DNA from: Candidatus Falkowbacteria bacterium
GTDB lineage: Bacteria > Patescibacteriota > Patescibacteriia > JACRDY01
DNA length: 64,000 nucleotides
Reading direction: 5' to 3'
NCBI GenBank assembly: GCA_016218485.1
Contig: JACRDY010000059.1
Location: forward strand, 11,529 to 75,528
The notes under the pieces were generated by a model. The model ran no database searches. It was not told the origin of the DNA and worked only from the letters and a program-made list of their open reading frames with translations. Numbering within the stretch: the first letter of the stretch is position 1; every line of letters starts with the position of its first letter. Below, piece by piece: positions 2,545-39,830 of this stretch. The translations under genes were made by a program, and so were the position numbers.

Positions 2545-2835
2545 GGAGAATACCCCGCCGTAACTCCCCCTGCCAAGGGGGAGACGCCTCCGTTGCTGAG
2601 GTCTCTGCCCCGCCCCGCATTGTGCGGGGGGCGGAGCCGAAGCTTACGGAGGCGAGAGGGGGTGGGAGCGAAAACCCCACCCTGTCCCTCCCCTTACTTC
2701 GGTCGCCTGCGGCGAACCTTGTAAGGGGAGGAGACTGTCGAGCAACTTTTGGGTAGAGACAAAAGACTCCGGCAACCCCTCCTGTCCTCCCCCAACGCAT
2801 GAGGGAGAGACCGTCGAGCACGCTTGGTTGATACA
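2545..2835. repeat. GC-rich mosaic palindromic repeat cluster (modules ccccgcattgtgcgggg; ccccaccctgtccctcccctt; cctcctgtcctcccc)
   Basis: Modules recur at 4985-5085, 12790-13200, 19840-20400, 32385-32520 and 39640-39830. Confidence 0.75.
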
Positions 2836-2990
2836 TTCGTAGTCATAGTATTTTATCAGGAAAAGAGGAAAAAGAGAAGTGAAAATGTTGACAAATTTTT
2901 AAAAAGCAGTATGTTATATTGATGTCCTCTGGTAGGTCATTATGTAACAACACACGCCCAGAAGCGTGTAGAAAGGTACAGGGCTAGACC

Positions 2991-3614
2991 ATGAAGCTGC
3001 GTTATGTCACGTTGTTAGTGATCGTGATTGTGGTGGCGGTGTTTTGGACGTTCTACCGTCTGGGGTATACTCCCAGCGAGGTGCTTGCCGAAGCCTTCTA
3101 CGGTTCGCCCGGGCAGGTCGCCGAGGCAGAGGCGAGCGAAACACTGACTGGCACGAATAAGGGTGCCGTCACCGCGCAGTTGGCGGAACCGGATCCGGCT
3201 CGTGGGGTTCCGGAGTACCAGAAGCAGGGCTTCACTTCGGCGTTCAGGTGCGTTGACACGGATGGGGAGAATTTCCTCGTCGTGGAGAATGCCTTGGACT
3301 TCCCGGGTATTTTTACCGGACAGTTCGCGAAGGTTACCGCGGCCTTTGTGCTCCATGATTTCAACGATCGGAAGGTCGTGTTGGTCATTGATCCGGACTC
3401 TTTCCGGAACAACTTGGGGAGTTGGCTGAAGGACGCGGAAGCGGCGGAGGGCCGTGAAGGACCGACGGTCAAAGTGTACCGTCAAGCCTACGACGAACTG
3501 ATGAACGGGCTTGACGGTTTGCGTTTCGGCGAGACCTACTACCTGGAGGAAAAAGGGTTTACGCCCGAGAACGCTGACGGGTTCGCGATCGCCAGGTTCA
3601 CCACCATACCCTAG
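2991..3614 (+). CDS. hypothetical protein with an N-terminal membrane anchor
   Basis: 207-aa ORF; hydrophobic N-terminus LLVIVIVVAVFWTFY; GC-richer than neighbours; followed by a strong intrinsic terminator; no family recognised. Confidence 0.55.
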   Translation: MKLRYVTLLVIVIVVAVFWTFYRLGYTPSEVLAEAFYGSPGQVAEAEASETLTGTNKGAVTAQLAEPDPARGVPEYQKQGFTSAFRCVDTDGENFLVVENALDFPGIFTGQFAKVTAAFVLHDFNDRKVVLVIDPDSFRNNLGSWLKDAEAAEGREGPTVKVYRQAYDELMNGLDGLRFGETYYLEEKGFTPENADGFAIARFTTIP

Positions 3615-3635
3615 CGGGCATGAGCAACATTCAAG

Positions 3636-3670
3636 ACGCCCCGATGTCAGCATCGGGGCGTTTTCACTTT
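3636..3670. terminator. Rho-independent terminator (cgccccgatg-loop-catcggggcg + T-run), bidirectional between convergent genes
   Basis: Perfect 10-bp stem and flanking T tract read directly. Confidence 0.75.
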
Positions 3671-3679
3671 TTTCAGCAA

Positions 3680-4270
3680 CTATTTTTTTAACAACGGTTC
3701 CACGATTTTCCAGATATCGTCAGCCACTCGCTCTGGCGGTTGGTTGGCATGAATAATGTGCCAGCCGTGTTTTTTTGCCAAATCAAGATGGATCTGCCTG
3801 ACTTTTTGGATCAGTGCCTCATTGGTTTCGTGGGCATGGCTCTGTTCAATGGCTTCGGTAAATCGCTGGCCATCCAGGAGAATGGCAATATCCTCGGGTC
3901 GGATGAATGAATAAAAATGTTCCAGCAGGTCCAGATCTATTCCCGCGCCGGCGCCCCAGGCTAGCGCCGTACCGAAATAGTCCTCGGCTACGACATCATG
4001 TCCGGCTTGGAGCAAGCCACCGAGCTGTGGCTCAAATGATATACGGTCAATGTAGTGGAGGAGTTGCAGTTCTCGGGGAGAAAAATTCTGGGGGTTGCCT
4101 TGACGAAGGTACGAGTTAATCAGCGGGCCGGCCGGAGCCAATTCATAGATCGGGTATTTGACATATTCCGCGGTACGGCCAAGCGAGGTTAATTTTTCAG
4201 TCAGCAATTTTGCCTGCGTGCTTTTGCCGAGGTTATTAATACCATAAATGACGATAAATTTTCCGGGCAT
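3680..4270 (-). CDS. thymidylate kinase-like P-loop kinase
   Basis: 196 aa; GINNLGKSTQ P-loop with Tmk-like layout; sits in the thymidylate-synthesis cluster. Confidence 0.65.
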   Translation of the reverse strand: MPGKFIVIYGINNLGKSTQAKLLTEKLTSLGRTAEYVKYPIYELAPAGPLINSYLRQGNPQNFSPRELQLLHYIDRISFEPQLGGLLQAGHDVVAEDYFGTALAWGAGAGIDLDLLEHFYSFIRPEDIAILLDGQRFTEAIEQSHAHETNEALIQKVRQIHLDLAKKHGWHIIHANQPPERVADDIWKIVEPLLKK

Positions 4271-4343
4271 AGGTGGTTAGTGAGTAGTGAGGAGGGGGTA
4301 GGAGCCCCGCCTTCACGTTGGGACTTCGGCGCGGCCAGGGAAG

Positions 4344-4862
4344 TTAAGGTTTGAGAACCTGGTATCTCAATTGAATAGCATCCTCGGTCAGTTTTTGGAT
4401 ATCCAGCAGTCGCAGGGTCATATCAAGGTTTTGCCCTTCAGTGAATCTAATGCCTTGGCCGAAAATTTTTGGCTCAATCGTCAGGAGCAGTTCATCCACC
4501 AAGCCGGCGGCCAAGAATTGCGCGTTGGTTTTAGCGCCGCCGCCGAGAATCGCTGCAGGGAACCCTTTGGCTTCCAGGGCGTGAATGGTTTGCTCCGGGC
4601 TGCCTTTAAAAAATTCCAACACTCCCGGCTGCGTCTGACTAGCGAATTTTTCCGGTTCAGAGGTTAAAATAAAATTAAGCCGTCCGGGCAGTGGACGGTT
4701 AATCGTGGCATACGTTGAGCGGCCAAAAATAACCACGCCGGCTTTCTTGGTCTCGTCGGTGAATGACTGCTTGTCGGCGCTGCTGGTCCAGTCCGTCAGG
4801 TGCTCGCTGTCCAGGGCGATAATGCCGTCGGCGCTCATGGCCATCATTAGGGTAAGTTTCAT
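4344..4862 (-). CDS. dihydrofolate reductase family protein (RibD C-terminal/DHFR-like)
   Basis: 172 aa; MKLTLMMAMSADGIIA...FILTS...ILGGG pattern of the DHFR/RibD-C family; adjacent to thyA. Confidence 0.75.
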   Translation of the reverse strand: MKLTLMMAMSADGIIALDSEHLTDWTSSADKQSFTDETKKAGVVIFGRSTYATINRPLPGRLNFILTSEPEKFASQTQPGVLEFFKGSPEQTIHALEAKGFPAAILGGGAKTNAQFLAAGLVDELLLTIEPKIFGQGIRFTEGQNLDMTLRLLDIQKLTEDAIQLRYQVLKP

Positions 4863-4984
4863 AATTTTATTTCACCTATCACGTTTATTCTTTGTAATAC
4901 CCCGTCAGCTTGCTGCGGGGTTACCATATAATCCCGAGTCCAGAGCTTGCTCTGGGGTTCAATACCTTTTATTGAGTATTAATC

Positions 4985-5085
4985 GTTTTACTCCCACCCC
5001 CACCGCCTCCGTAAGCTTCGGCTCCGCCCCGCTGTAGCGGGGCGGGCCTCAGCAACGGAGGCGACTCCCCCTCGGGCAGGGGGAG
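4985..5085. repeat. GC-rich mosaic repeat (inverted relative to the 2560-2670 copy)
   Basis: cgcctccgtaagcttcggctccgccccgc...cctcagcaacggaggcg is the reverse complement of modules at 2585-2660. Confidence 0.7.
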
Positions 5086-5087
5086 AT

Positions 5088-5960
5088 TTAAATCGCGATG
5101 GGGAATTTAATGGTGGGGTAGCTGGCATAGCCGACTAGTTCGGTATCGGTGTACTGCCAGTCAAAAATATTGGTGAAGTTTTTCGTTTCAATCTTCGGCA
5201 GCGGGTAGGTGCTGGGATCGCGCGACAGCTGTTCATGAGCGCCTTCAACATGATTTACAAAAAGGTGAATGTCAGCTAAAAAGCCGATCAGCCGGCCTTC
5301 GGCAAAGCCACTCTCTTTAGCCAAGAGGTGCAGGAGGAGGGCGTAGCTGGCGATGTTAAACGGCAGACCGAGCATGATATCAACTGAGCGCTGATTCCAG
5401 AGCAGGTTGAGCCGGCCGTTGACGACGGTAACCTGGTACGCCCAGTGACAGGGTGGCAGCGCCATCTGATCCATCATCAGCGGATTCCAGGCGCAGACGA
5501 TCATCCGGCGATCATTGGGATTGGTTTTTAACATCTCCACCATATTTTTCAGCTGATCGCAGCCTTGGTCGGTATAGTTAGTGTCATAGTTATGGTACGG
5601 CGCGTTAAAGTGTCGCCACTGAAAGCCATAGATCGCTCCGAGGTCGCGCTCTTCCGTCATTCTTTTTTTTGATGGTTCGTCATGCCCGTAGGGCGCTTTT
5701 TTGGGGTTAGCCCACTCATCCCAGATGTGGTTATTGTGGTCCAGTAGCCATTGCTTGTCAGTAATACCCTTGATGAAAAATTCCAATTCTGAAGCGATGA
5801 GACGGAGTGGCACCTTCTTGGTTGTCAGCAGGGGATAGCCATTGGCCATGTCGTGCTCAAACATCCCACCGGCAATGGTGTAGGCGTCAGTACCCTGGCG
5901 GGTTTGTTTGATCTGACCCTCGTCGAGCGTTTTTTTAACCAAATCTAAGTATTGTTTCAT
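5088..5960 (-). CDS. thyA: thymidylate synthase
   Basis: 290 aa; KQTRQGTDAYTIAGGMFEHDM, LLTTKKV and other ThyA signatures. Confidence 0.92.
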   Translation of the reverse strand: MKQYLDLVKKTLDEGQIKQTRQGTDAYTIAGGMFEHDMANGYPLLTTKKVPLRLIASELEFFIKGITDKQWLLDHNNHIWDEWANPKKAPYGHDEPSKKRMTEERDLGAIYGFQWRHFNAPYHNYDTNYTDQGCDQLKNMVEMLKTNPNDRRMIVCAWNPLMMDQMALPPCHWAYQVTVVNGRLNLLWNQRSVDIMLGLPFNIASYALLLHLLAKESGFAEGRLIGFLADIHLFVNHVEGAHEQLSRDPSTYPLPKIETKNFTNIFDWQYTDTELVGYASYPTIKFPIAI

Positions 5961-5970
5961 AACAACGCAA

Positions 5971-6396
5971 TTATTTCCTGCCCGTGGAGCCGAATTGGCC
6001 AGTGCCGCGCCGCGCTTCGCTCAATTCAGCCGTCTCCGTTAGCTCGGCCAGCGCCACCGGGAAAATGACGAGCTGGGCGATCTTGTCGCCGGTTTCAATA
6101 GTGTAGGCTTCGCTGCCCAGATTGATCAGCTGCACATTATACTCGCCGCGGTAGCCGGCATCATAGACCCCGCCCATGGTGTGCAGGCCCGCGTTTTTGG
6201 GCAGGCTGCTCTTGTCTTTGACCATCGCGGCATAGCCACTGTTAAACTCTAGGGCAAAACCCAGATTAAAAATCCGACGTTCACCGACTCGCAGCGTATA
6301 CTGTTCTCGTGAGTACAGATCTAGACCGACATCGCCCGGGTGGGCGTAGGAGGGGAGTTTTACATCGGGGATGAGTTTTTTGATCAAGACCTTCAT
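5971..6396 (-). CDS. dut: dUTP diphosphatase
   Basis: GDVGLDLY and C-terminal RGTGQFGSTG motif; the ATG at 6396 (MKVLIKKL) is preferred over the TTG at 6417. Confidence 0.88.
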   Translation of the reverse strand: MKVLIKKLIPDVKLPSYAHPGDVGLDLYSREQYTLRVGERRIFNLGFALEFNSGYAAMVKDKSSLPKNAGLHTMGGVYDAGYRGEYNVQLINLGSEAYTIETGDKIAQLVIFPVALAELTETAELSEARRGTGQFGSTGRK

Positions 6397-6417
6397 GGAA
6401 ATAAGTTCAAAGTTCAA

Positions 6418-6560
6418 AAGTTATAAAGTTGAAAGTTCAAAGTCCAAAATCCCAAGTTCAAAGTTCAAATCAAGTTCAAAGTTTTAAGTTCAAATGCCAA
6501 ATCAGCGCATTGTTTGAACTTTGTCATTAGGTATTGATTTGAACTTTGGATTTTGAACTT
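6418..6560. repeat. AT-rich palindromic repeat (gttcaaagt arrays; caaagttcaaaatccaaatgacaaatcaa / rc)
   Basis: Same element at 14325-14450 and 45398-45525. Confidence 0.75.
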
Positions 6561-7126
6561 TAGTTATTTTTTGCTTTAATAGTTTTCAGAATGTCCTCAA
6601 TCTGCTGGTGCAGCTGTTCAATCGTGCCGTTGTTGTTAATCGTGAAGTTGGCAGTCTGGCCGGTTTCCAGGATGTGGATTTCCGCTTCGGCTCGTTCATC
6701 CTGCTGGAATTGTTCAAAGGTTTTACTGGTATCATCAACGTTTTCTCCGCGTTTGATGATTCGTTCGTAGCGAATTGGTTGATCAGCGGTTAGGTAAATG
6801 AGGGAGAAGCCGGCGAACCGTCGCAGGTATTTGATGTCCGGTTCACGGCGGACGCCGTCAACGGCGATCAGTTCGGCCGAATCTTTATTGACGTCTTCGG
6901 CAATCACCCGCGCCAGCGTGTCTTGGCCAAAATTTTTACGCAATGTTTGCGACATGTGCTGCATATTATCGCGGACGATCGGCAGGTACAAGCGGCCGAG
7001 GATATCGCGCAGTATGCCGGAAAACCGGTATGACGGCGCGCCGTATTTCTCCTTGAGATACTGGCAGGCGGTGCCTTTGCCACTGGAGATTTCGCCGACA
7101 AAGCCGAGGATGATTTTATTGGCCAT
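6560..7126 (-). CDS. P-loop nucleotide kinase (dNMP-kinase-like)
   Basis: 188 aa; GFVGEISSGKGT P-loop at the N-terminus; embedded in the thymidylate cluster; family assignment tentative. Confidence 0.55.
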   Translation of the reverse strand: MANKIILGFVGEISSGKGTACQYLKEKYGAPSYRFSGILRDILGRLYLPIVRDNMQHMSQTLRKNFGQDTLARVIAEDVNKDSAELIAVDGVRREPDIKYLRRFAGFSLIYLTADQPIRYERIIKRGENVDDTSKTFEQFQQDERAEAEIHILETGQTANFTINNNGTIEQLHQQIEDILKTIKAKNN

Positions 7127-7175
7127 AGTAGCAAGTTAGAAAGTTATAAAGTTGAAAGTTTAGTTTTTTTAACTT
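7127..7175. repeat. agttataaagttgaaagtt palindromic repeat family
   Basis: Related copies at 9142-9180, 9550-9615, 10420-10490 and 10960-11045. Confidence 0.65.
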
Positions 7176-7381
7176 TTCTGCTGGGGGGGTTCCGTTCATA
7201 GCCCTTTGGGCTTGAGTGGATTAGCTCATGAAGACGAGCTGACGATTCCCCTCAACTCCACGCTATATTTTCATCACTACGCACTATTGATAATATTTAA
7301 TCATGTGCTATAGTTTAAATAGAAATGTCAATTTTATACCCCAACAAATCCATCTCTTTTCTAGGCGGGTTTGTTTTTTAG

Positions 7382-7936
7382 TTACTGATTAGCGTAGTGT
7401 TCCATTTCATCATTCAAGAGGACATATTCAACACCCGCCAATTTGAGAATTTCTTTGGAGCGGCCGGCGGCGTGGTAGTCTTTTTCCACCACCACCCGTT
7501 TGATCCCGCAGTTGATGAGCATTTTGGCGCAGGTGTAGCAGGGGAACATTAGGCAGTAGATGGTGGCGCCATCCAGCGCCACGCCGAGTTTAGCCGCCTG
7601 GGTCATGGCATTCTGTTCGGCGTGCGAGGTGCGGATGCAGTGTTGGCTGGTGCTGCCATCGGGGTTGTTGACGGTGTGCATCTCATGACCGACTTCGTCG
7701 CAGTGTAGGCAGCCTTTGGGCGAGCCGACATAGCCGGTGACCAGAATATGTCGGTCGCGCGAGACGCAGCAGCCGGTACGGCCGCGGTCACAGGTACCGC
7801 GGGTGGCGGCGGCGCGGGCAATATTCAGGAAATATTGATCCCAGGTGGGGCGGACGTGGGCCGGAGCCGGTTCATTGGTTTGATTAGTTTGGTTTTGATT
7901 TTGTTCCTCCCAGGAGAGCTGGTTTGACTGGTCCAT
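7382..7936 (-). CDS. dCMP deaminase
   Basis: 184 aa; HAEQNA...PCYTCAK zinc-binding cytidine/deoxycytidylate deaminase motifs. Confidence 0.88.
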   Translation of the reverse strand: MDQSNQLSWEEQNQNQTNQTNEPAPAHVRPTWDQYFLNIARAAATRGTCDRGRTGCCVSRDRHILVTGYVGSPKGCLHCDEVGHEMHTVNNPDGSTSQHCIRTSHAEQNAMTQAAKLGVALDGATIYCLMFPCYTCAKMLINCGIKRVVVEKDYHAAGRSKEILKLAGVEYVLLNDEMEHYANQ

Positions 7937-8069
7937 ATGGCCGTGGTTAAGGAGTTAACAATTTCCTGTATTTTACCAGAGGGAGGAGTGGCAAGGCAAG
8001 AGGTCGGTTAATAACGCCCAAACTGACCTATAATCATTAGGGATAAGCCACATTCAGCAGAATAAAAAG

Positions 8070-8215: not shown

Positions 8216-8346
8216 TGTCTTATTTCGTACATTCGCTTGCCTTCGCCGTAGCGGAGCCCCGCATTTTGCGGGGCTTCGCGCAGGCAAGGAACTCTAGGTC
8301 TCCATTGCCATGTATGATATTTTATATTAAACTCTAGGTAATTACT

Positions 8347-9141: not shown

Positions 9142-9163
9142 TTGAAAGTTATAAAGTTGAAAG

Positions 9164-9508: not shown

Positions 9509-9671
9509 ATACTCACAGTATAAGAATAATTATTAAAAAATATCTAAACTCTTGATTTTTCCCTTTATAATTTGCAACTTTATAACTTTATAACTTTCAA
9601 CTTTATAACTTTTTTAACTAAAAAACCCCGTGGGCATATCCCACGAGCTTTTTTAAATTTTCAATCCGGAG

Positions 9672-10355
9672 TTAAACCGCCAGCTTGATACTCGGGCCCA
9701 TAGAGGTGCAGAGTACGGCATGTTTGAGGTAGGTGCCTTTAGACGATGAGGGTTTGGCTTTACGTACCGCTTCTAGGAAGGTTTCGGCATTATCCAGCAG
9801 TTTGTCTTGGCCAAAGGAGATTTTGCCGATCAGCTGATGGATGTTGCCGGTATTGTCGCTCTTGAAGGTGATTTTACCTTTTTTTAATTCTGAAATTATT
9901 TTAGCGACGTTCGGGCCGACAGTTTCGTTTTTCGGCGACGGCATCAGGCCGCGAGTGCCAAGGATTTTGGCGATGACGGCGATCTTCGGCATCATGGCCG
10001 GAGTGGCTACCGCCACTGCAAAATCAGTTTTCTCGGTTTTTTTGATTTCATTGATCAGGTCTTCGCCGCCGACCAGGTCAGCGCCGGCTTCCCGCGCGTC
10101 CTTTTCCTTATCAGCTTCCACAAAGGCAGCCACCCGTTTGCTCTTGCCCGTGCCGTGCGGCAGGGTAATGGTGGAGCGGATTTGCTGGTCGCTCTTTTTG
10201 GTATCAATGCCGAGCCGCAGGTGGATTTCCACGCCGGCGTCAAATTTTTCAGTCTTATGGCTGATAATCAGATTCAGCGCTTCGGCCAGGCTGTAGACTT
10301 GGCTGCGGTTAATTTTGGTAGCTAGTTCGTTGTAACGTTTGCCGTGTTTTGGCAT
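9672..10355 (-). CDS. rplA: 50S ribosomal protein L1
   Basis: 227 aa; L1 family throughout. Confidence 0.93.
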   Translation of the reverse strand: MPKHGKRYNELATKINRSQVYSLAEALNLIISHKTEKFDAGVEIHLRLGIDTKKSDQQIRSTITLPHGTGKSKRVAAFVEADKEKDAREAGADLVGGEDLINEIKKTEKTDFAVAVATPAMMPKIAVIAKILGTRGLMPSPKNETVGPNVAKIISELKKGKITFKSDNTGNIHQLIGKISFGQDKLLDNAETFLEAVRKAKPSSSKGTYLKHAVLCTSMGPSIKLAV

Positions 10356-10420
10356 AGGTATTTCGTTCAGTGGTGCGTGCGTCCGCCGCGGCGGACTCCC
10401 ACGGTTAGTTAGTTGTCAGT
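10356..10420 (-). promoter_or_regulatory. rplA 5' leader with conserved structured element (GUGGGAGUCCGCCGCGGCGGACGCACGCACCAC)
   Basis: ~45 nt identical to the rplK leader; contains the 16-bp palindrome gtccgccgcggcggac. Confidence 0.5.
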
Positions 10421-10490
10421 TAGAAAGTTGAAAGTTATAAAGTTAAAAGTACAAAACTTTCAACTTTATAACTTTATAATTTTAAACTTT
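10420..10490. repeat. agttataaagtt-family palindrome between rplK and rplA (terminator-like)
   Basis: Inverted repeat read directly. Confidence 0.6.
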
Positions 10491-10911
10491 ATTCCACCAT
10501 AATCCCCATCTGTCGGGCCGTGCCTTCAATAATGCGCATGGCGGCATTGATGTCATGAGCGTTGAGATCAACCATTTTTTTCTCGGCGATCTCTCTCACT
10601 TGAGCGCGGGTGACTTGGCCGACTTTTTCTTGCAGCGGTTTGCCTGAACCTTTGGCTACACCCGCGGCTTTTTTTAAGAGTTCAGCGGCCGGCGGAGTTT
10701 TGAGAATAAAGGTGTAGGTGCGATCCTCGTAGATGGTGATTTCACAGGGAGTAATGTCACCCGGCATTTGCTTGGTGGCTTCATTAAATTTACTGCAGAA
10801 TTCACTGATGTTCACGCCATGCTGGCCGAGCGCCGGGCCGACCGGCGGCGCCGGGTTGGCTTGCGCGCCCGGGATCTGCAGCTTGACGATTGTTTTGATT
10901 TTCTTAGCCAT
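10489..10911 (-). CDS. rplK: 50S ribosomal protein L11
   Basis: 140 aa; [35 protein letters not shown]. Confidence 0.95.
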
Positions 10912-10975
10912 ATACGTTTCGTTAAGTGGTGCGTGCGTCCGCCGCGGCGGACTCCCACGGTTGTTAGTTAAAAGT
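10912..10975 (-). promoter_or_regulatory. rplK 5' leader carrying the same structured element as the rplA leader
   Basis: gtgcgtgcgtccgccgcggcggactcccacgg on the + strand, identical to 10370-10410. Confidence 0.5.
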
Positions 10976-11041
10976 TAGAAAGTTGAAAGTTATAAAGTTG
11001 AAAGTTTTGTACTTTTAACTTTATAACTTTCAACTTGTAAC

Positions 11042-11587
11042 TCAGATTTTTTTTACTTGCAGGAAATCCAGCTCCACCGGTGTCTCGCGGCCGAACATAG
11101 AGACGAGCGCCTTGATCTTGCCGCGGGTTTCATCAATCTCGGAAATTTTTCCTTCAAAGTTTTTGAACGGGCCGTCCACGATGCGGATGGGCTGGCCGAT
11201 AGAGAGGTCAATGGTGTAGGTTGGCTCTTCCACGCCCTTGCGTTTCATGATAGCTTCCACTTCTTTTTTGGACATGGGCGTCGGCACCGTGCCGGAGCTG
11301 GTGAAGCCGGTGACGTTGGGGGTATTGCGCACCACGTACCAGGAATCATCAGTGACGGTCATTTCCACCATGATGTAGCCGGGGAAGATTTTTTCCTCAA
11401 TGACTTTCCGTTTACCATTTTTGATTTTGATCTTTCGCTCAGTCGGAATAACCACGTTAAAAATTTTGTCGTCCATACCCATGGAGACAATTCTGGACTT
11501 GAGGTCTTCCACCACTTTTTCCTCATAGCCGGAGTAGGTGTGAATGACGTACCAGCGGCGGCCGAGCTGTAGTGTTTGTTTTGGCAT
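11042..11587 (-). CDS. nusG: transcription termination/antitermination factor NusG
   Basis: 181 aa; NGN domain plus KOW (GQPIRIVDGPFKNFEGKISEID). Confidence 0.92.
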   Translation of the reverse strand: MPKQTLQLGRRWYVIHTYSGYEEKVVEDLKSRIVSMGMDDKIFNVVIPTERKIKIKNGKRKVIEEKIFPGYIMVEMTVTDDSWYVVRNTPNVTGFTSSGTVPTPMSKKEVEAIMKRKGVEEPTYTIDLSIGQPIRIVDGPFKNFEGKISEIDETRGKIKALVSMFGRETPVELDFLQVKKI

Positions 11588-11589: not shown

Positions 11590-11640
11590 TGGAGTAGTCC
11601 CTAGTCCTTAGTCCTTAGTCCTTAGTCCTTAGTCCTTAGC
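11590..11640. repeat. Tandem heptamer array (tccttag)x6-7; in the nusG mRNA it reads (CUAAGGA)n just 5' of the start codon
   Basis: Read directly; overlaps the secE stop codon; the same heptamer in opposite orientation lies before pilT at 13226-13262. Confidence 0.85.
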
Positions 11641-11845: not shown

Positions 11846-11947
11846 ATCCAGCACCTTCCAGAATACCCCATCAGCTTGCTGTGGGGGTGAATGGCTGAGA
11901 GAGTATGCCTGCAGTGTGTACTACCCCGACAGGAAGGTGCTGGATTT
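11846..11947. repeat. atccagcaccttccagaatacccc...ggaaggtgctggat palindromic repeat (long form with a gaatggctgagagagtat extension)
   Basis: Copies at 28771-28831, 31128-31245 and 51177-51237; partial at 4885-4935. Confidence 0.8.
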
Positions 11948-12789: not shown

Positions 12790-13200
12790 TAGAAGTAGGG
12801 AGGTTACTAATACGTTCCTCTCCTTACCAAGGAGAGGGCAGGTGAGGTTGCCGGAGCCTTCGGTCCCTACCCAAGGGGTGCTCGACGGTCTCCTCCTCTT
12901 ACAAGGTTCGCCGCAGGCAACCGAAGTAAGGGGAGGGACAGGGTGGGGTTAAGTTTACTGTATCGCAAAAAGTTTAAAGTATTTCGCATTGATTAGACTG
13001 CAAACCCCCTCCTGTCCTCCCCCTTATGAATAAGGGGGAGAGACGTGCTACCCCCGAACCCCACGTTACTTATTCTGTTTTCTTTTTGAATTTTATCTAG
13101 CTCTGACGGGGTAGGCAACATAGGAGGGTAATAGCCCGTCCTCCTCCTTACCAAGGAGAGGAACGCTCTAGCCTCGGCTCCACTGGACTTATTCTGTTTT
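12790..13200. repeat. GC-rich mosaic repeat cluster
   Basis: Contains ctctccttaccaaggagag twice, ggttgccggagccttcggtc, aaggggagggacagggtgggg, cctcctgtcctcccc and cttattctgttttc twice. Confidence 0.75.
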
Positions 13201-13225
13201 CTTTTCTTTCAAAATTTGGTAAAAT

Positions 13226-13262
13226 ACTAATAACTAAGGACTAAGGACTAAGGACTAAGGAC
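13226..13262. repeat. Tandem heptamer array (ctaagga)x5 immediately 5' of the pilT start; equals five tandem AAGGA Shine-Dalgarno cores
   Basis: Read directly; the last AAGGA lies 5 nt before the ATG. Confidence 0.85.
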
Positions 13263-13273
13263 TAAGGACTATT

Positions 13274-14324: not shown

Positions 14325-14450
14325 TGAAAGTTCAAAGTTCAAAATCCAAATGACAAATCAATGCCAAATGACAAAGTTCAAAAGGTGCGACTATTAGGCA
14401 TTTAAACTTTGAACTTGATTTGAACTTTTGATTTTGAACTTTGAACTTAA
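14325..14450. repeat. AT-rich gttcaaagt palindromic repeat
   Basis: Near-identical to 6418-6560 and 45398-45525. Confidence 0.75.
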
Positions 14451-19839: not shown

Positions 19840-20400
19840 GAGGAGCACGTAGCCCGTTCCTCTCCAATCCATCAGAGAGGTCAGCCTGCCCCGCCCCGCA
19901 TTGTGCGGGGTGCGGGGCGAGGCAAGGGTGGAGGTTGCCGGAGTTTTTTAATCTCCTCCGAAGCGGGGCAGCACGTCTCCTCCCCTTGCGAGGTTCACCG
20001 AAGGTGACCGAAGTAAGGGGAGGGACAGGGTGGGGTTTTTATTGCTCTCACTCCCACCGTTATATCTAGTTCCACCGTTTGGGTGCTACCCCTCCGCGGG
20101 GGCTCGTTACTTTCTGCCTGCCCGCCACAACTTCGCAGATATTGGCGGGTAGCTTTGGCAGGCGGGTAACCAACTCCCACCCCCACCCATCAGGGCTTGA
20201 GCCCCTCAGGGCCGAAGGCCGCCCCCGTAAGCTTCCCCCGCACAATGCGGGGCAGGGGGAGACCCGCCCACTTCCACCCGCTCCGCGCCCACCCGCCGGT
20301 AGCCACTCCAGTACCCTGTCTGCTCCCTCGCGTCGCTCGGGGCAGTTGCCACCCCGAACCCCACCGGACTTATTTTGTTGGATGGTTGATGGTGGTTGAT
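19840..20400. repeat. Largest GC-rich mosaic repeat cluster (~560 bp)
   Basis: Contains ccccgcattgtgcgggg twice (both orientations), aaggggagggacagggtgggg, ggttgccggag, and ccgaaccccaccggacttattttgtt. Confidence 0.75.
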
Positions 20401-22477: not shown

Positions 22478-22725
22478 TATCTAGTATCTAGTATCTGGTA
22501 TCTAGGGAAAAGTCACTGCTGTAAGTTAATTTTAGATATTCAACTTTAGATGCCGTCTATGAAAAAGCGCTGACGAGCAGCGTAGCCTTAAATCAGACGA
22601 GCAAAATATATCAGACTTTAGCAAAATAAGCAAGGTAAGTAGAGGAGGTGTCTCATAATCTAGGTGATTTTCCCAGATACCAGATACCAGATACCAGATA
22701 CTAGATACCAGATACTAAATACGGT
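22478..22725. repeat. ~250-bp element bounded by inverted tandem heptamer arrays (tatctag x4 ... ccagata x6)
   Basis: Read directly; MITE-like architecture. Confidence 0.6.
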
Positions 22726-22741
22726 ATACTGTAGGTAATTT

Positions 22742-28770: not shown

Positions 28771-28831
28771 ATCCAGCACCTTTCAGAATACCCCGTCAGT
28801 TTGCTGCGGGGTATTCTGAAAGGTGCTGGAT
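28771..28831. repeat. atccagcacctttcagaatacccc...ggaaggtgctggat palindromic repeat (short form)
   Basis: Perfect ~28-bp arms. Confidence 0.8.
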
Positions 28832-31125: not shown

Positions 31126-31127
31126 TA

Positions 31128-31245
31128 ATCCAGCACCTTCCAGAATATCCCGCAGCAAGCTGACGGGGTATTCTGGAAGGTGCTGGATGAATGGCTGAGA
31201 GAGTATTTCTGTGGCGTGCACTACCCCGACAGGAAGGTGCTGGAT
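31128..31245. repeat. atccagcaccttccagaata... palindromic repeat (long form)
   Basis: Near-identical to 11846-11947. Confidence 0.8.
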
Positions 31246-32280: not shown

Positions 32281-32384
32281 TTGTTTATAAGGTTTAACCA
32301 ATAGGCCGCTCCGGAAACGAGGGCGGTTTTTTAGATAAATTTTTTTATTAAAATTATCCATAGCGCTGATTAAGCTCAACCCCA

Positions 32385-32520
32385 CCCTGTCCCTCCCCTT
32401 ACTTCGGCCCCGCATTATGCGGGGACCTTGCAAGAGGAGGAGACGTGCTCTTCCGACTCAGGTGGTAGGTCCCGTCTCCTCCCCTTGCGGAGTAAGGGGA
32501 GGGACAGGGTGGGGTTGAGC
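32385..32520. repeat. ~135-bp GC-rich mosaic palindrome (ccccaccctgtccctccccttacttcgg-ccccgcattatgcgggg ... aaggggagggacagggtgggg)
   Basis: Outer and inner arms complementary, read directly. Confidence 0.8.
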
Positions 32521-32649
32521 CAAATCATAGCGCCTGCCAGATTAAATTTTTTTGCTTTTTCTCGGTACTTGATATAGAATGGTCGTACAATCTAAGTCCC
32601 ATTTGGGCCTAAGCAGGGGTATAGCAAAAAATACCGCTGTCAGTTTTGC

Positions 32650-32740
32650 ATTAAAAATCTTGTTAAATTGCCACATTGCCAAATTGTCGCACTGTTGTGT
32701 GAGGTATTTAACAATGTAGCCATGTGACAATGTAACAATA
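32650..32740. repeat. attgcca-heptamer-based palindromic repeat upstream of uvrB
   Basis: Related to 16670-16810. Confidence 0.6.
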
Positions 32741-34662: not shown

Positions 34663-34666
34663 ATCT

Positions 34667-35119
34667 ATGAAGAAAAAACACGTGGACGCAGAGTACAGTC
34701 AGATCACCTCCTATATCTGGATTGGCACTAATCAGTGCTGTAATTTCCATTTTAAGAAAGAATTATTGCGGCAGGGGATTGACGCGGATATTAGTCTGGA
34801 AGAAGAGCGGGTGGATGAGCCGGTTGGTGTGCATCATTTTCTCTGGTTGCCAGTCAAAGATCATCATGCGTTGAGTCAGACACAGTTGCATATTGGGGCG
34901 GCTTTTATGGAAACGTTAGTCAAAAGCAAAATCAAGATGTATGTCCACTGCAAAAACGGTCATGGCCGTTCACCCAGTTTGGTGATGGCTTATTTTATCA
35001 CGCAAGGCAAAACGTATCAGCAGGCCTTTGACTTGGTCAAGAGTAAACGTCCGGAAGTACATCTTCGGCCGAGTCAAACAGCGGCTCTGCGGAAGTTTGC
35101 TCAGCGTCGGAAGAAATAA
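34667..35119 (+). CDS. dual-specificity / tyrosine protein phosphatase (DUSP-like)
   Basis: 150 aa; VHCKNGHGRSPS = HCx5R catalytic loop. Confidence 0.75.
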   Translation: MKKKHVDAEYSQITSYIWIGTNQCCNFHFKKELLRQGIDADISLEEERVDEPVGVHHFLWLPVKDHHALSQTQLHIGAAFMETLVKSKIKMYVHCKNGHGRSPSLVMAYFITQGKTYQQAFDLVKSKRPEVHLRPSQTAALRKFAQRRKK

Positions 35120-35231
35120 AAAAACAAACCCGTTCGCAATAGCGGGAACGGATTTGTTTGACGGTTCCAGGTTTGACACTTGAATATTACCAGTATAACA
35201 AAGTATATTGTTGTGTCAATGGAATAGGTGT

Positions 35232-35300
35232 GGAGCTAAGGGGAATCGAACCCCTGTATTCAAGTGTCAGGCTGGAATACCGCCACCAGGCATAGCTCCA
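35232..35300 (-). tRNA. tRNA-like gene with canonical acceptor and T-arm but atypical D/anticodon region; anticodon unresolved (loop CCUGACA)
   Basis: Minus-strand RNA GGAGCUAUGCCUGGUGGCGGUAUUCCAGCCUGACACUUGAAUACAGGGGUUCGAUUCCCCUUAGCUCCA; 7/7 acceptor pairs; GGGGUUCGAUUCCCC T-arm; no CCA; anticodon stem needs a C-U mismatch or a 9-bp stem. Confidence 0.55.
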
Positions 35301-35381
35301 CACCCAAGGCGAGTGTACCAGAGGTAGTATTAAAAAAATCTAAACTATTTAATTAATTAAAATTTTTGCCTTACTGTTGAT

Positions 35382-38222
35382 ATGCCCAGTGAATCCATCC
35401 AAATCCGCGGCGCGCGGGAACACAATCTCAAGAGCATCAACGTGGATATTCCGATTAACCAGTTCACGGTGATTACCGGCCTGTCCGGCAGCGGCAAGTC
35501 GAGCCTCGCGTTTGACACCGTCTACGCCGAGGGTCAGCGTCGGTATGTTGAGAGTCTGTCGAGTTACGCCCGGCAGTTTTTGGGCATCATGGGCAAGCCG
35601 GATGTGGACAGCATCAAGGGCCTCTCGCCGGCGATTTCGATTGAGCAGAAGAGTATCTCACACAACCCGCGCTCAACCGTCGGGACGATCACGGAAATTT
35701 ACGACTACTTGCGTCTGCTCTATGCCCGGATCGGCGTGCCGCACTGTCCGCTGTGCGGTACGGTAATCAAACCGCAAGACGCGGAGAGTATTACCAAAAA
35801 TTTGCTGACTGGTTTTGCCGGGAAAAAAGTCAAGATTCTGGCGCCCATTGTGCGTGGCAAAAAGGGCAACTACGAGCAGCTATTTTTAGACTTGAACAAA
35901 CAGGGCTATGTCCGCGTCCGGGTGGATGGCAAGGAAGGGGAGGTGACGGATTATTTTGGCCAGGGTAAGACAGTGATTGAGCGCTATGCCCCGCACAACA
36001 TTGAAGTCTTGATTGACACGATTAAAGTTGACGGTCCGGCGAAAACTCGGTTGCAGCGCTCGATTGAGTCGGCATTGAAGCTGGCCGCTGGTCTGGTGAT
36101 GGTTATTATTGAGCAGCATAAAAAAGACGCAATTGAAAAAGTTTACTCACAGCATTTAGCTTGTCCGGACTGCGGCATTAGTTTTGACAAATTACAGCCG
36201 CGCCTGTTCAGCTTCAATTCACCCTTTGGCGCCTGTCCGACCTGTCACGGTCTGGGCTTTATCCAAAAATTCGAGCCGGAGCTGATTATTCCGGACAAAG
36301 GCTGGACGCTGTCTGAGGGCGCTATTCGGCCGCAGGGGTTCAGCGTCAGCGGGTTCTTTGGTCAAATGCTCGAGACCCTCGGTCACAAGTACAAGTTTAG
36401 CGTTGAGACGCCGGTTCAGGATTTGTCCAAGAAAATCATGGATATTATTTTCTATGGCACGGATGACAAGATTGACTGGGAATTCGCCTCCAAGAGCACG
36501 GATAATGTCTGGGAGTGGACGGGTCGCTGGGAGGGGATTGTGCACCGTCTGGAGCGGCTGTACAAGCAAACGGACTCGGATAGCCGGCGGGCGGAGATGG
36601 AGCGCTACATGATAGAGCAGCCGTGCGGTGGCTGCGGCGGCGCCCGGCTCAAGCAGGAGGCGCTGGCCGTGATGCTATCCGGTAAAAATATCCATGAGAT
36701 TACCGGCTTGCCAATTACCGAGCTGGTTGCTTTTCTGTCCACGATCAAGCTGAACAAAGCGGAAACCGAGATCGGCAAACAAATCATGAAAGAGCTGGCT
36801 GACCGACTGCAGTTTCTGGTTGACGTCGGACTTGATTATTTGACGCTGGCGCGGCGCGGGGCCACGCTGTCCGGGGGCGAGGGTCAGCGGATTCGTCTGG
36901 CGACGCAGATCGGCTCGGAGCTGCGCGGCGTGACCTATATCCTGGACGAGCCGTCGATCGGCCTGCACCAACGTGATAATGAGAAACTGATCAAGACGCT
37001 CAAGAATATGCGCGATATTGGCAACACCGTCATCGTGGTGGAGCACGACGAGGATACGATTTTGGCCGCGGATTATGTGTTTGATATCGGGCCGGGCGCG
37101 GGGATCCACGGCGGGCACGTGGTGGCGGAGGGCACGCCGGAGCAGATTAAGAAAAATAAAAAATCGCTGACCGGGGCGTATCTGTCCGGCCGCCAGCACA
37201 TCAGCGTCCCGGATAAGCGGCGCCGGCCGCACGGTTTTATTGAGCTGCGCGGCGCGCGCCACAATAATTTGAAAGATATTAACGTCGACTTTCCCGTGGA
37301 AGTGCTGTGCTGCATCACCGGCGTGTCCGGCAGCGGCAAGTCCAGCCTGATTACCGACACGTTGTATCCAATACTCGCCAAGAAACTGCACTACGCGCGC
37401 GTGGTGCCCGGCGCGCATGACAGCATTGAGAATTTCGGCTATGTGGACAAGGTGATTATCATTGACCAGTCGCCGATTGGCCGGACGCCCCGTAGTAATC
37501 CAGCTACTTATACGGGAGTGTTTACTTATATTCGTGAGTTATTTGCCGCTACGAAAGAGGCTAAGATACGGGGCTACCAGCCGGGACGGTTCAGCTTCAA
37601 CGTTGAGGGCGGACGCTGCGGCAACTGCGAGGGCGACGGCGTGATTAAGATTGAGATGCATTTCTTGCCTGATGTCTATGTGGAGTGCGAGCAGTGCAAA
37701 GGTCAGCGCTACAATGAGGAAACACTGGAGGTGAAGTACAAAGACAAGAATATCGCTGAAGTTCTGAATATGACGGTGGAAGAAGCCCTGACGTTCTTCG
37801 GGCCGGTGCCGCGGATTAAGAGCAAGATGCAGACGCTCTTCGACGTTGGCTTGGGCTATATCAAGCTGGGCCAGTCCGCCACCACGCTGTCCGGCGGCGA
37901 GGCCCAGCGCATCAAGCTGACCGCCGAGTTGTCACGGCGCGATACCGGGCGTACACTGTATATACTTGATGAGCCGACCACCGGCCTGCACTTCGCCGAC
38001 ATTGAGAAGCTCCTGGAAGTGCTGAATCGTCTGGTGGACAAAGGCAACACGGTGATCGTGATTGAGCACAATCTCGACGTAGTCAAGTCCGCGGACTATA
38101 TTATTGATTTGGGTCCCGAAGGCGGCGACCGCGGCGGGCAAGTGATTGCCAAAGGCACGCCAGAGCAGATAGTCAAAGAAAAGGGGAGCTATACCGGGAA
38201 GTTTTTGCGGAGGGTGGTTTAA
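35382..38222 (+). CDS. uvrA: excinuclease ABC subunit A
   Basis: 946 aa; two ABC modules with zinc-finger insertions. Confidence 0.95.
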
Positions 38223-38334
38223 TCCATCTTTTTGCTTTTTTAGGTTATCCACAGTTTAATCTTGATTTTTGATCAGAATAGTGTATTATTATTTTTAGGA
38301 TCTAAATAATAATTAATTTTTTAAGATCAAAAAT

Positions 38335-39414
38335 ATGGAGGAATTTAAATTAAAAGCATTCAAAGTCATCCAAAATGGTAGGCAATTTTACGTTTCAACC
38401 ATCACATGTGAGCAGCTACTCGACGAAGATACCTTTAGAACCGACATTTGGAAAGAGGAATTGAAAAATACTCCATCAAAACAAGGGTATCAACGAGAAC
38501 CATCTCAAAATCATGTTAATGGAGTTGTGAAGTATATGGCTGGTGATAATATATCAATTTTTCCCACCAGTATTTTGCTAAATTGCCGTTATAAAATACC
38601 TAGTCGCGAAAATGGCAGTATATTTGAGATAACTATTGATAGACCTCTATGGATCGTGGATGGTCAGCACCGAATTTATGGCATTAGAAAGGCCATTCAA
38701 GAGAAAGGTCTAAGAGAGTGGAAAGGATTTTCTGTGCCGGTAGTTATATTAGATGAATTTGATCAAGGTGAAGAATTAGCTCAATTTAAGGTTATTAATG
38801 AGAGTCAAAAGGGGATATCTACTGGTCTGTTGCAGTGGCAGATGTATCAACAGTATACTCGTGACCCTGAAATGAAGGATAAATATAAGAGTAAAATTTG
38901 GCAGGTCAAAGCTTTAATGGCTATGGATAAACTTAATGATGACGATAATAGCCCTTGGAAAAATCATATTCAACTGCCAAACGTGGAGAAACGCAGAGAT
39001 CATTCAATTAACCAAACTTCTTTTGTGACTTCTTTGAAGCCTTTATTTAAGGATGGTTTTCTAAGTAATTATAAACTAGATGATTCGGTTTTAGTCCTTA
39101 AGAATTATTGGAAAGCGGTCTCTGTATTGTTTCCTGAGGCAATGAAAGACCATAAGCATTATTTACTATTAAAAACCCCTGGTATTTTTCCATTACATCT
39201 ATTAGCTAACGAAATATTACCGCGTTGTAACAAAGATGTCAGTATAGAGAAGATATTGGAGTATTTAAAAGTTGTTTTTAAAGATCAAAAATATAGTAAC
39301 GAATTTTGGTCGAAAAAAGGCCGAGGAGCAGCTTTGTTAGGAAGTATGAAAGGATTTAAACGTTTAGCGGATGATTTGATCATGGATCTTCCAGAACAAA
39401 CCTTAACAAAATAA
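38335..39414 (+). CDS. DGQHR domain protein (DndB-like, ParB/Srx-fold)
   Basis: 359 aa; WIVDGQHRIYGI motif; ~36% GC against a ~55% background. Confidence 0.75.
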   Translation: MEEFKLKAFKVIQNGRQFYVSTITCEQLLDEDTFRTDIWKEELKNTPSKQGYQREPSQNHVNGVVKYMAGDNISIFPTSILLNCRYKIPSRENGSIFEITIDRPLWIVDGQHRIYGIRKAIQEKGLREWKGFSVPVVILDEFDQGEELAQFKVINESQKGISTGLLQWQMYQQYTRDPEMKDKYKSKIWQVKALMAMDKLNDDDNSPWKNHIQLPNVEKRRDHSINQTSFVTSLKPLFKDGFLSNYKLDDSVLVLKNYWKAVSVLFPEAMKDHKHYLLLKTPGIFPLHLLANEILPRCNKDVSIEKILEYLKVVFKDQKYSNEFWSKKGRGAALLGSMKGFKRLADDLIMDLPEQTLTK

Positions 39415-39424
39415 TTAAAATAAT

Positions 39425-39565
39425 ATGGCTAGAAAGATGACCAGTCCTCGAGTAGCTAAGATTGCCTCAAAGCAGTTAAAAAGCAAGACTGCTAATAAGG
39501 CGGCCAAGATGACTGCGGCCAGCGCTTTATCTCAGCGAGAAAAAAGTCGTCGTAAACGAAAGTAG
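39425..39565 (+). CDS. small lysine/alanine-rich basic protein (histone-H1-like composition), 46 aa
   Basis: MARKMTSPRVAKIASKQLKSKTANKAAKMTAASALSQREKSRRKRK translated by hand; 10 nt after the DGQHR gene; followed by a terminator; absent from the ORF track because it is under 60 aa. Confidence 0.45.
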   Translation: MARKMTSPRVAKIASKQLKSKTANKAAKMTAASALSQREKSRRKRK

Positions 39566-39574
39566 AGAATTCAT

Positions 39575-39610
39575 CTAAATCACCTCCGCCTCCCGCGGGG
39601 GTGTTTTTTT
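39575..39610. terminator. Hairpin (cctcccgcgggggtg) + T7, intrinsic terminator closing the DGQHR island
   Basis: Read directly. Confidence 0.6.
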
Positions 39611-39639
39611 AGTTTAGAAATATTTTAACTTTGGTATGG

Positions 39640-39830
39640 TAGGGTGTGTAATAGCCCGTTCCCCTCCTTTCCAAGGAGGGGCCAGGGGCGGTTGCCGGAG
39701 CCTTCGGTCTCTACCCAAGCTTTGTTCGCAGGCCACGGTAGCAGCCAATACCTCGGCAACCTCACCCGTCCTCCCCTTAGAAAGGGGAGGAACGGTCTAT
39801 TCCCGGTTGCCGGAGTTTAAATCCAATATA
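39640..39830. repeat. GC-rich mosaic repeat (cccctcctttccaaggagggg; ggttgccggagccttcggtc; cctccccttagaaaggggagg)
   Basis: Shares modules with 12790-12900. Confidence 0.7.

Follow-up and report, generated by a model that had tools for sequence, protein, structure and literature searches.

Class II intrastrand triplex motifs are built of a pyrimidine arm, a purine arm and a reverse-Hoogsteen arm (Holder et al. 2015, PMC4666352). The BoxC repeats of E. coli, later named PIT elements and TM_ECO (Hoyne et al. 2000, as cited in PMC4666352), follow the pattern CCCTCNCCC N3-6 GGGNGAGGG N3 GGGNGAGGG. Strain MG1655 carries 23 TM_ECO copies, always intergenic, without strand bias and with five inverted pairs (PMC4666352). 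They have no association with mobile elements, PIT elements are without promoter or terminator activity, and TM_ECO loci are more frequently rearranged between strains (PMC4666352). The isolated TM_ECO strand forms a stable triplex in vitro, and purine-motif triplexes do not form in RNA (PMC4666352). Kaplan et al. (2016, PMC5100583) interpreted E. coli motifs of the same layout, in which a conserved C-rich arm precedes four G-runs on the 5' side, as a switch that can adopt a G-quadruplex, a hairpin or a duplex. In the CGTC-tagged repetitive extragenic palindromes (REPs; Di Nocera et al. 2013, PMC3733652) the stem measures 8-9 bp and opens with two A/T positions, the loop is 4-5 nt long and the tail is a short CCA. 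Here we compare with these systems a family of GC-rich palindromic repeats in a 64,000-nt stretch of DNA, called the window below, which spans positions 11,529 to 75,528 of contig JACRDY010000059.1. It is a chromosomal housekeeping-gene stretch in the metagenome-assembled genome (MAG) of an uncultured Candidatus Falkowbacteria, a member of the Patescibacteria or candidate phyla radiation (CPR).

The repeats occupy loci A (2545-2835), B (4985-5085), C (12790-13200), D (19840-20400), E (32385-32520) and F (39640-39830). We read these loci, with a probability of about 0.6, as non-coding triplex-type scaffolds of the BoxC/PIT/TM kind, assembled into nested mosaics and gained in the intergenic spacers of this Falkowbacteria lineage. 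They represent a sequence family new to the known BoxC/PIT/TM class, located in a CPR genome and with unusually elaborate nesting; they are not a new kind of system.

All scaffolds have a common design. On the G-rich strand, 5' to 3', a pyrimidine arm is followed by a loop (loop 1), a complementary purine arm, a turn of 3-5 nt (loop 2) and a G-rich tail, as in CCCTCCCC..GGGGAGGG-ACA-GGGTGGGG. The tail of each scaffold mirrors the purine arm, being neither its complement nor its direct repeat, and the tail base opposite a stem A is A or T. Since the tail mirrors the purine arm, it can lie antiparallel in the major groove and would there form G.G-C, A.A-T or T.A-T triads. To judge from its sequence, the code of the tail is that of an antiparallel purine-motif triple helix. 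The alpha type reads GTCTCCTCCCCTT - loop - AAGGGGAGGGAC - A - GGGTGGGGTT and has five copies. The beta type occurs in the forms GGGGGAGGA-C-AGGAGGGGG, GGAGAGG-GCA-GGTGAGG, GGAGGGG-CCA-GGGGCGG and GGGGAGG-ACG-GGTGAGG. The gamma type, CTCCCCC - loop - GGGGGAG - hairpin - G(A/T)GGGGG, has a hairpin of 60-70 nt (modules 5, 1 and 6, described below) in front of its tail.

A scan modelled on the ITxF motif finder detected 10 class II motifs in the window with 0-1 mismatch each, against a chance level of 0-0.07 motifs in 30 dinucleotide shuffles. All 10 lie in the loci named above. Two gamma units beyond the 10 were found by reading and by their coordinates. The scanned motifs split 5 to 5 between the strands and the GC skew is positive along the entire window, thus there is no orientation bias relative to replication. 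When folded as DNA by Watson-Crick rules, each unit forms a stable hairpin and leaves a G-rich 3' tail of 11-14 nt unpaired.

Stem and tail covary. Within the window GGGGAGGG is found with GGGTGGGG, GGGGGAGGA with AGGAGGGGG and GGAGAGG with GGTGAGG, and the gamma stem GGGGGAG is found with GAGGGGG or GTGGGGG despite the nested hairpin of 60-70 nt between them. The mirror rule was also examined by run lengths, comparing asymmetric stems G^aAG^b with tails G^cXG^d in 145 metagenome loci and the window. The tail was a mirror (c = b) in 36 of 55 distinct architectures and a direct repeat (c = a) in 3; with everything containing the query 19-mer left out, the counts were 28 and 3. The tail base X was T in 36 architectures, A in 26 and C in 2, that is, A or T in 62 of 64. 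A cruder test gave 111 zero-mismatch hairpins for the antiparallel code versus 53 for the parallel code. In one lineage the 3' flank GGTCGATGAATGA mostly accompanies GGGGAGGG-ACA-GGGTGGGG, and in L038 it accompanies GGGGGAGG-TTA-GGAGGGGG.

The window units have the arm order of the class II definition (ITxF, PMC4666352) and follow its triad code with at most one mismatch. Enrichment over shuffles, intergenic location, absence of strand bias and an inverted pair (32374-32520) were all found. The stems of 7-9 nt and second loops of 3-5 nt are inside the ITxF limits (stems 6-15, loops 1-6). Loop 1 measures 5-13 nt in six units and 31-35 nt, being itself a hairpin, in four, and in the gamma units loop 2 is the 60-70 nt hairpin.

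A sequence-only reading of the window had described the family as six modules recurring at the six loci, and all six modules are present there, with about 0 chance matches expected. Module 2 (AAGGGGAGGGACAGGGTGGGG, a 21-mer) has five exact copies, at 2675-2695 (-), 12928-12948 (+), 20015-20035 (+), 32380-32400 (-) and 32494-32514 (+), against 0.00 in shuffles. Module 1 (CCCCGCANTNTGCGGGG, a CCCCGCA-NTNT-GCGGGG stem-loop) also has five, at 2613, 8257, 19894, 20236 and 32408 (shuffles 0.00), as has the module 3 core GGTTGCCGGAG (shuffles 0.02); modules 4, 5 and 6 are present as described. A blastn-short self-comparison linked the six loci by matches of 63-105 nt with 89-95% identity in both orientations. 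Thus 2673-2777 matches 12950-12846 (90% across 105 nt), 2671-2735 matches 20039-19975 (92%), 12813-12875 matches 39657-39719 (89%) and 2564-2668 matches 5085-4991 (92-95%). The same comparison found no copies of the family in the 40-64 kb part of the window. The sequence-only reading was equally right that the loci are intergenic (six of six lie between open reading frames (ORFs) or genes) and GC-rich, with a GC content of 0.604; coding DNA has 0.544 and the intergenic DNA outside the loci 0.411. The shared peptides that it noted in spurious ORFs are genuine frame translations (GSPQATEVRGGTGWG and GSPKVTEVRGGTGWG) and represent one reading frame of the alpha unit. When the spurious-ORF peptides of the repeats were concatenated, no predicted protein matched them anywhere at E <= 10.

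Its account needs amendment at several loci. The six loci stand, and a seventh site, a module 1 hairpin at 8236-8288, must be added. The part of locus D from 20040 to 20400 is a degenerate mosaic. The near-perfect nested palindrome claimed for locus E exists, with perfect 30-nt ends, but it extends over 147 nt (32374-32520) and its interior is asymmetric because one arm holds the module 1 hairpin and the other a short loop. RNA folding of 32360-32540 gave a minimum free energy of -130.7 kcal/mol (z = -15.9). The sequence-only reading overlooked the organising principle of the family. Modules 2 and 4 are each a hairpin with a tail mirroring its purine arm; the loops of these scaffolds contain modules 1, 5 and 6 as nested hairpins, and module 3 links one scaffold to another.

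Module 3 (GGTTGCCGGAG..GTCYCTACCC) joins a beta unit to an alpha unit, and the resulting composites at loci A (-), C (+), D (+) and F (+) can be aligned over their full length. The module 1 hairpin occurs in different settings: at the apex of the gamma hairpin at locus A, in loop 2 of a beta unit between purine arm and tail at locus D, in loop 1 of an alpha unit at locus E, and alone at 8.2 kb. One alpha unit (TM-alpha5) is without the inner hairpin of about 21 nt found in another (TM-alpha2), and the inner hairpins of alpha units keep their pairing through changes on both sides. The settings of module 1, the gain and loss of hairpins and the alignable composites indicate that the loci, 60-560 bp in size, are nested, recombined mosaics of a few hairpin modules.

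Comparison with related genomes points to gain of the elements in particular lineages. The nearest database relatives of the window's TypA and ThyA are just about 77-80% identical. The gene order dut-thyA-folA-tmk-(x)-gatB is conserved in two relatives with about 80% ThyA identity, L131 and L133. Between thyA and folA they have 1 nt and 10 nt, against 225 nt with a gamma unit in the window, a clean gain relative to syntenic relatives, and the window's tmk-to-gatB interval holds locus A. No triplex-type motif was found in 18 kb each of L131 and L133. In L009, another Falkowbacteria relative, two units immediately precede typA, and 22 kb of L006 contain none. These short, motif-free spacers and the contrast between L009 and L006 imply that the elements were gained, or the spacers expanded, in particular lineages. 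Motif abundance varies strongly among relatives, as it does between E. coli and Salmonella (PMC4666352). The two triplex-type units of L009 lie at 9904-9987 in the leader of typA (start 10001), on the C-rich strand. Only 8 nt separate the end of the purine arm AAGGGGAGGG from the typA ATG, so that the likely ribosome-binding site of typA would be locked in a hairpin.

Elements of this kind are found well beyond the window. Five species-representative genomes contain a 22-mer of the family; two of them are labelled Patescibacteria and the others Bacteroidales, Gammaproteobacteria and Nitrospirae. Since these are MAG labels on short contigs, mis-binning is possible. The 19-nt core of the alpha type occurs on at least 120 metagenome contigs with a GC content of 0.30-0.75. 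In nearly all listed matches a complementary arm lies 4-8 nt upstream, almost always giving the same hairpin plus tail. Similarity between the metagenome copies is limited to an element of 40-110 nt and the flanks are unrelated. Inverted dimers like locus E occur in several lineages (L004; the "gggaatccc" family). On contigs L014, L022, L033, L074, L084, L116 and L125 the alpha core is accompanied by motifs of the TM_ECO pattern, from which it follows that several triplex-motif families coexist in one genome. None of the 145 metagenome loci fetched contains module 1 or module 6, and the module 3 core GGTTGCCGGAG was found among them on three GC-rich contigs only, which are probably chance 11-mer matches. 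A query of the literature with the core sequence as a text string retrieved no paper.

A phage vector was considered and rejected. Six of the 12 viral-contig matches to the 19-mer belong to one phage lineage without the hairpin arm and are probably chance or coding occurrences, and the module 3 pattern had no match in viral contigs. A conserved partner gene, whether a REP-associated tyrosine transposase (RAYT) or another, was likewise rejected. When 2801 ORFs within 3 kb of the cores at about 125 loci were clustered, the recurrent families were just generic ones, such as ABC transporters, together with GC-rich ORFs that are spurious. A gene for a DUF559 protein (Vsr-like endonuclease fold) adjoins units in two unrelated contigs (L004, 5402-5776 (-); L052, 10002-10379 (+)) and was not found beside the core in the remainder of the 125-locus set. 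In L002 (4606-4731) and L003 (3040-3165) an alpha-type unit and a GGGGGAGG-TTA-GGAGGGGG unit form an opposed pair 60-90 nt apart, and the L002 pair lies directly upstream of a tmRNA gene (4763-5170).

The scaffolds of the window are described here in order. Locus A begins with TM-gamma copy 1 (2564-2668, +), in which CTCCCCC (2564-2570) and GGGGGAG (2577-2583) are followed by a nested hairpin of 70 nt in the second loop (2585-2654; modules 5, 1 and 6) and a GAGGGGG tail within 2655-2668. As DNA it folds into two hairpins with an unpaired G-rich tail of 14 nt (-38.1 kcal/mol, z = -6.5). TM-alpha3 (2673-2735, -) consists of GTCTCCTCCCCTTA, an inner hairpin GGTTCGCC/GGCGACC and TAAGGGGAGGGAC-A-GGGTGGGGTT; its hairpin folds with -19.3 kcal/mol (z = -5.4) and its 11-nt tail is unpaired. 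A module 3 linker (GGTTGCCGGAG..GTCTCTACCC) at 2751-2777 (-) connects it with TM-beta1 (2776-2812, -; GGGGGAGG-ACA-GGAGGGG). TM-beta1 was read by eye; its pyrimidine arm is decayed, and because of this imperfect arm the strict scan did not call it. Locus B, in the thyA-folA spacer, is TM-gamma copy 2 (4991-5085, -): CTCCCCC-loop-GGGGGAG, a nested hairpin of 60 nt and the tail GTGGGGG, which places T opposite the stem A (DNA fold -39.1 kcal/mol, z = -6.9). The solitary long hairpin at 8236-8288 (+) has module 1 (CCCCGCATTTTGCGGGG) at its apex and folds as DNA with -21.7 kcal/mol (z = -5.4).

Locus C contains TM-beta4 (12817-12847, +; CCTCTCC-TTACCAA-GGAGAGG-GCA-GGTGAGG), a module 3 linker (12846-12872, +) and TM-alpha1 (12888-12950, +). 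These are followed by TM-beta2 (13003-13044, -), a perfect mirror with the structure CTCCCCC-loop-GGGGGAGGA-C-AGGAGGGGG, which folds as DNA with -12.0 kcal/mol (z = -4.3) and an unpaired tail. An extra shared module, CCCCGAACCCCAC..ACTTATTYTGTT, is located at 13052-13079 (+), again at 20352-20379 and in part at 13187-13205. A beta-type hairpin at 13140-13163 (+), CCTCCTCC/GGAGAGGA, has no mirrored tail; with TM-beta1 and the scaffold at 19859-19943 it is counted among the decayed or tail-less relatives of the beta units. This last scaffold (+) opens locus D and reads CCTCTCC..GAGAGG ... GGTGGAGG, after which module 3 begins. By alignment with loci C, A and F, the module 1 hairpin of 34 nt between its purine arm and tail (19887-19920) is an insertion. 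TM-alpha2 (19975-20037, +) has the inner hairpin GGTTCACC/GGTGACC, which is compensatory relative to TM-alpha1 and TM-alpha3. The degenerate GC-rich mosaic downstream (20040-20400) includes a gamma-tail fragment (20174-20186), module 1 (20236-20252) and the extra module mentioned above. Locus D, this mosaic included, is situated between two convergent terminator-like sites.

Locus E combines TM-alpha4 (32378-32444, -), in which a module 1 hairpin replaces the usual inner hairpin, with TM-alpha5 (32474-32516, +), a minimal form with a loop 1 of 11 nt; together they make up the inverted pair of 147 nt. Locus F has TM-beta5 at 39661-39691, reading CCCCTCC-TTTCCAA-GGAGGGG-CCA-GGGGCGG with one triad mismatch, and the module 3 linker comes next, the two together spanning 39661-39716 (+). 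TM-beta3 (39760-39793, -) reads CCTCCCC-TTTCTAA-GGGGAGG-ACG-GGTGAGG, also with one triad mismatch, and a further GGTTGCCGGAG (39805-39815, +) lies beside it.

For the function and the mode of spread of the window repeats we infer the following scheme. The G-rich strand would become transiently single-stranded during replication, repair or transcription, and could then fold into a hairpin with a third strand or, in the alpha type, into a G-quadruplex. Such a fold might impede polymerases and so lead to slippage, template switching and recombination between copies, by which modules would spread and be reshuffled. A polymerase-impeding fold would explain why the mosaics are reshuffled, why inner hairpins come and go and why the spacers are expanded and unstable. 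Nothing in the evidence calls for a dedicated transposase, and the window shows no sign of one.

Several points weigh against this assignment to the triplex class. Triplex formation is a prediction from the letters of the DNA, and for E. coli TM_ECO the triplex was detected neither in vivo nor in double-stranded DNA (PMC4666352). In four alpha units loop 1 (31-35 nt) exceeds the limit of the published finder, though the loop is a hairpin, and two beta units have one triad mismatch each. In the composites at loci A (-) and C (+) the tail can pair instead with the upstream CCCTACCC of module 3 by Watson-Crick pairs and one G-U. The counts within the window are not independent, because the copies are related by descent. 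As to spread, 64 kb were scanned and a mobilising enzyme may be encoded elsewhere in the genome.

The alternatives differ in how much of the design they account for. The mosaic organisation recalls bacterial interspersed mosaic elements (BIMEs) and REPINs, in which short palindromes are mobilised in trans by a RAYT and clustered as mosaics. The sequence-only reading had proposed this affiliation, and as to organisation it is apt: the family is dispersed, intergenic, modular, mosaic, palindromic, GC-rich, clustered and present in both orientations. The inverted dimers at locus E and in L004 are REPIN-like, a GTAGC start is seen in some units (13035-13039 (-), 19853 and the 39650 region), and many units start with CGTC or CGTT, recalling the tagged REPs (PMC3733652). 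Membership, however, was not borne out. A Pfam scan of about 50 window ORFs detected no cognate RAYT, no Y1 transposase (PF01797) and no other transposase, and no transposase recurs near the cores at about 125 other loci. Of about 14 units only about 3 show the GTAGC head, and CGT(C) lies inside the stem. An identity with the CGTC-tagged REPs was rejected since their published stem, loop and CCA-tail features are absent (PMC3733652). Nor would REP/BIME elements be predicted to have a mirrored tail that covaries with the stem, and we regard this origin as quite unlikely. An origin as miniature inverted-repeat transposable elements (MITEs), whose terminal inverted repeats are recognised by a mobilising DDE transposase, would fit the perfect 30-nt inverted termini of the 147-nt element at locus E and the gain of elements in spacers relative to related genomes. 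But locus E has no visible target-site duplication, its inverted symmetry runs into the flanks at lower identity, and it alone has terminal inverted repeats, most units being single hairpins. With no transposase in the window and with element boundaries that are mosaic rather than fixed, a MITE origin is highly improbable.

A regulatory or replication-blocking switch between G-quadruplex and hairpin overlaps with the triplex-scaffold reading. On this view purine arm and tail contribute the four G-runs of a quadruplex that would compete with the hairpin. The canonical G3+N1-7 pattern is matched by the alpha core GGGG-A-GGG-ACA-GGG-T-GGGG and by 48 of the 68 distinct motif types that the fetched loci contain, and the E. 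coli counterparts switch between hairpin and quadruplex by circular dichroism (PMC5100583). However, 20 of the 68 types do not fit the pattern, nor do TM-beta2, TM-beta4 and the gamma units (runs 5,2,2,5 or 2,1,2). A quadruplex needs neither the mirror rule (c = b) nor A or T opposite the stem A, and both are observed; we therefore give this explanation a low probability. Selection at the RNA level, as stabilisers of mRNA 3' ends, attenuators or small RNAs, would agree with the orientation of the beta-linker-alpha or beta-linker composites at loci A (-), C (+), D (+) and F (+), all of which run as the flanking co-directional or upstream gene, in a small sample. Stems stay paired through two-sided changes (for example CCTCTCC/GGAGAGG vs CCCCTCC/GGAGGGG), loci A and B sit within what is a tight operon in the relatives, and in L009 a purine arm overlaps the likely typA ribosome-binding site. 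Compensatory changes, however, are expected equally for DNA hairpins, single units are oriented 5 to 5, and no Rfam match was obtained even at E <= 5. Locus F comes after a terminator-like site and locus D lies between two convergent ones, which speaks against RNA-level selection of at least some copies. With the inactivity of PIT elements as promoters or terminators in E. coli and the absence of purine-motif triplexes in RNA (PMC4666352), an RNA role for the family appears decidedly improbable, though copies inside operons may have one. A structured non-coding RNA or ribozyme was also sought with Rfam (window at the gathering threshold and at E <= 5, 20 related loci at the gathering threshold) and rejected; only generic hairpin-like miRNA matches far below gathering were returned. 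Intrinsic terminators were rejected as well, since the G-rich tail, about 11 nt long, lies between the stem and the U-run where there is one.

A broader proposal is that the triplex-type scaffold, instead of being a set of REPs each specific to a lineage, is a pan-bacterial mini-element defined by its structure. Some host process of wide conservation, or else a universal enzyme, would then recognise or generate the fold and copy it into intergenic DNA. The proposal is suggested by the identical 19-nt core at GC contents of 0.30-0.75, by the covariation of stem and tail and by the tolerance of both loops for cargo hairpins. Candidates would be template switching, with a folded lagging strand as the template, or a nuclease of DNA repair. 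We consider this proposal unlikely; if true, CPR genomes would display an extreme, nested form of the element.

The Pfam scan identified in the window gatB, tmk, folA, thyA, dut, rplA, rplK, nusG, a pilT-like gene, genes for PBP2 and a Mur ligase, a glnA-like gene, typA, purL, uvrB, uvrA, uvrC, rpsB, tsf, gap and eno. Between rplA and an inositol-monophosphatase-family gene lies a gene for a 23S rRNA intervening-sequence protein (PF05635; 9164-9508, -). A tRNA-like element is present at 35228-35299 (-) in the spacer before uvrA (Rfam tRNA 29.8 bits, gathering 29); the same 72 nt match the tmRNA model weakly and gave no ARAGORN call. A low-GC island at 38001-40000 (0.38-0.40), which may be horizontally acquired DNA, contains a DndB-like gene (38335-39414) followed by locus F. 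Six tandem paralogues of about 550-590 aa with many Cys-X2-Cys motifs are encoded at 51313-61841 (+), with weak Pfam matches to treble-clef zinc fingers. Long palindromic hairpins occur in or near this array at 56565-56642 and 60114-60191, and a related one is located at 48856-48933.

Other repeats share the spacers. A separate, unrelated palindromic family, ATCCAGCACCTTCCAGAATACCCCGTCAGC..GCTGCGGGGTATTCTGGAAGGTGCTGGAT, has copies of about 61 nt with 77-92% identity at 11846-11906, 28771-28831, 31128-31188 and 51177-51237, and its core additionally occurs at 4900-4920. Intergenic tandem repeats of heptamers (GGACTAA, AGATACC, AGTAATC and AAAGTTN types) are numerous, often as inverted pairs around genes, and recall the STRR repeats of cyanobacteria. 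They were found at 6403-6561, 9545-9622, 10393-10500, 10948-11055, 11595-11639, 13227-13271, 14327-14448, 22675-22730, 45397-45519 and 50003-50121. The heptamer repeats and the GC-rich islands are the reason why the window spacers are far longer than those of L131 and L133.

BoxC/PIT/TM repeats have been known for 30 years, and their function and spread are not understood. The present family extends the class to the candidate phyla radiation. The mirror rule, which holds over many unrelated stems and even across hairpins of 60-70 nt, is comparative evidence that the third arm is maintained, beyond mere hairpin formation or G-richness, and so bears on this old question. The islands also inflate the intergenic DNA of a small genome, create spurious ORFs and are likely to trouble assembly and sequencing.

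With REPs, BIMEs and REPINs the window family has in common short GC-rich intergenic palindromes, alternating mosaic clusters, inverted doublets and spurious ORFs. It differs from them in lacking a RAYT in the window and a consistent GTAG tag, and REPs have no tail that mirrors a purine arm. The CGTC-tagged REPs resemble it in the CGTC or CGTT start of many units and in forming head-to-head dimers in several phyla, but in the window CGT(C) belongs to the stem and the tail is a G-rich mirror of 9-11 nt. Small dispersed hairpin repeats that nest in the loops of other repeats and keep their secondary structure were reportedly described in cyanobacteria by Elhai and colleagues in 2008; their sequences and hosts are different, and they are not known to have a triplex-type tail. 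The switch motifs of Kaplan et al. have the C-rich arm 5' of four G-runs in common with the window units, and the alpha core fits the quadruplex pattern. Unlike those motifs, the beta and gamma scaffolds retain the mirror design without four runs of at least three G. The closest likeness is to BoxC/PIT/TM_ECO, with an identical arm order, a 3-nt loop and a mirrored G-rich tail in elements that are strictly intergenic, G/C-rich, without strand bias, frequently in inverted pairs, without a known transposon link and variable in abundance between related genomes. Differences exist as well: the host is a CPR bacterium and not a proteobacterium, the stems are of 7-9 nt (GGGGAGGG, GGGGGAGG, GGAGAGG, GGGGGAG) against 9 nt (GGGNGAGGG) in TM_ECO, and the loops bear nested hairpins of up to 70 nt in linker-chained mosaics of up to about 560 bp. 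The TM_ECO pattern itself had 0 matches in the window and 8 in the metagenome loci carrying the alpha core. The window units share the structural class of TM_ECO and differ from it as a sequence family.

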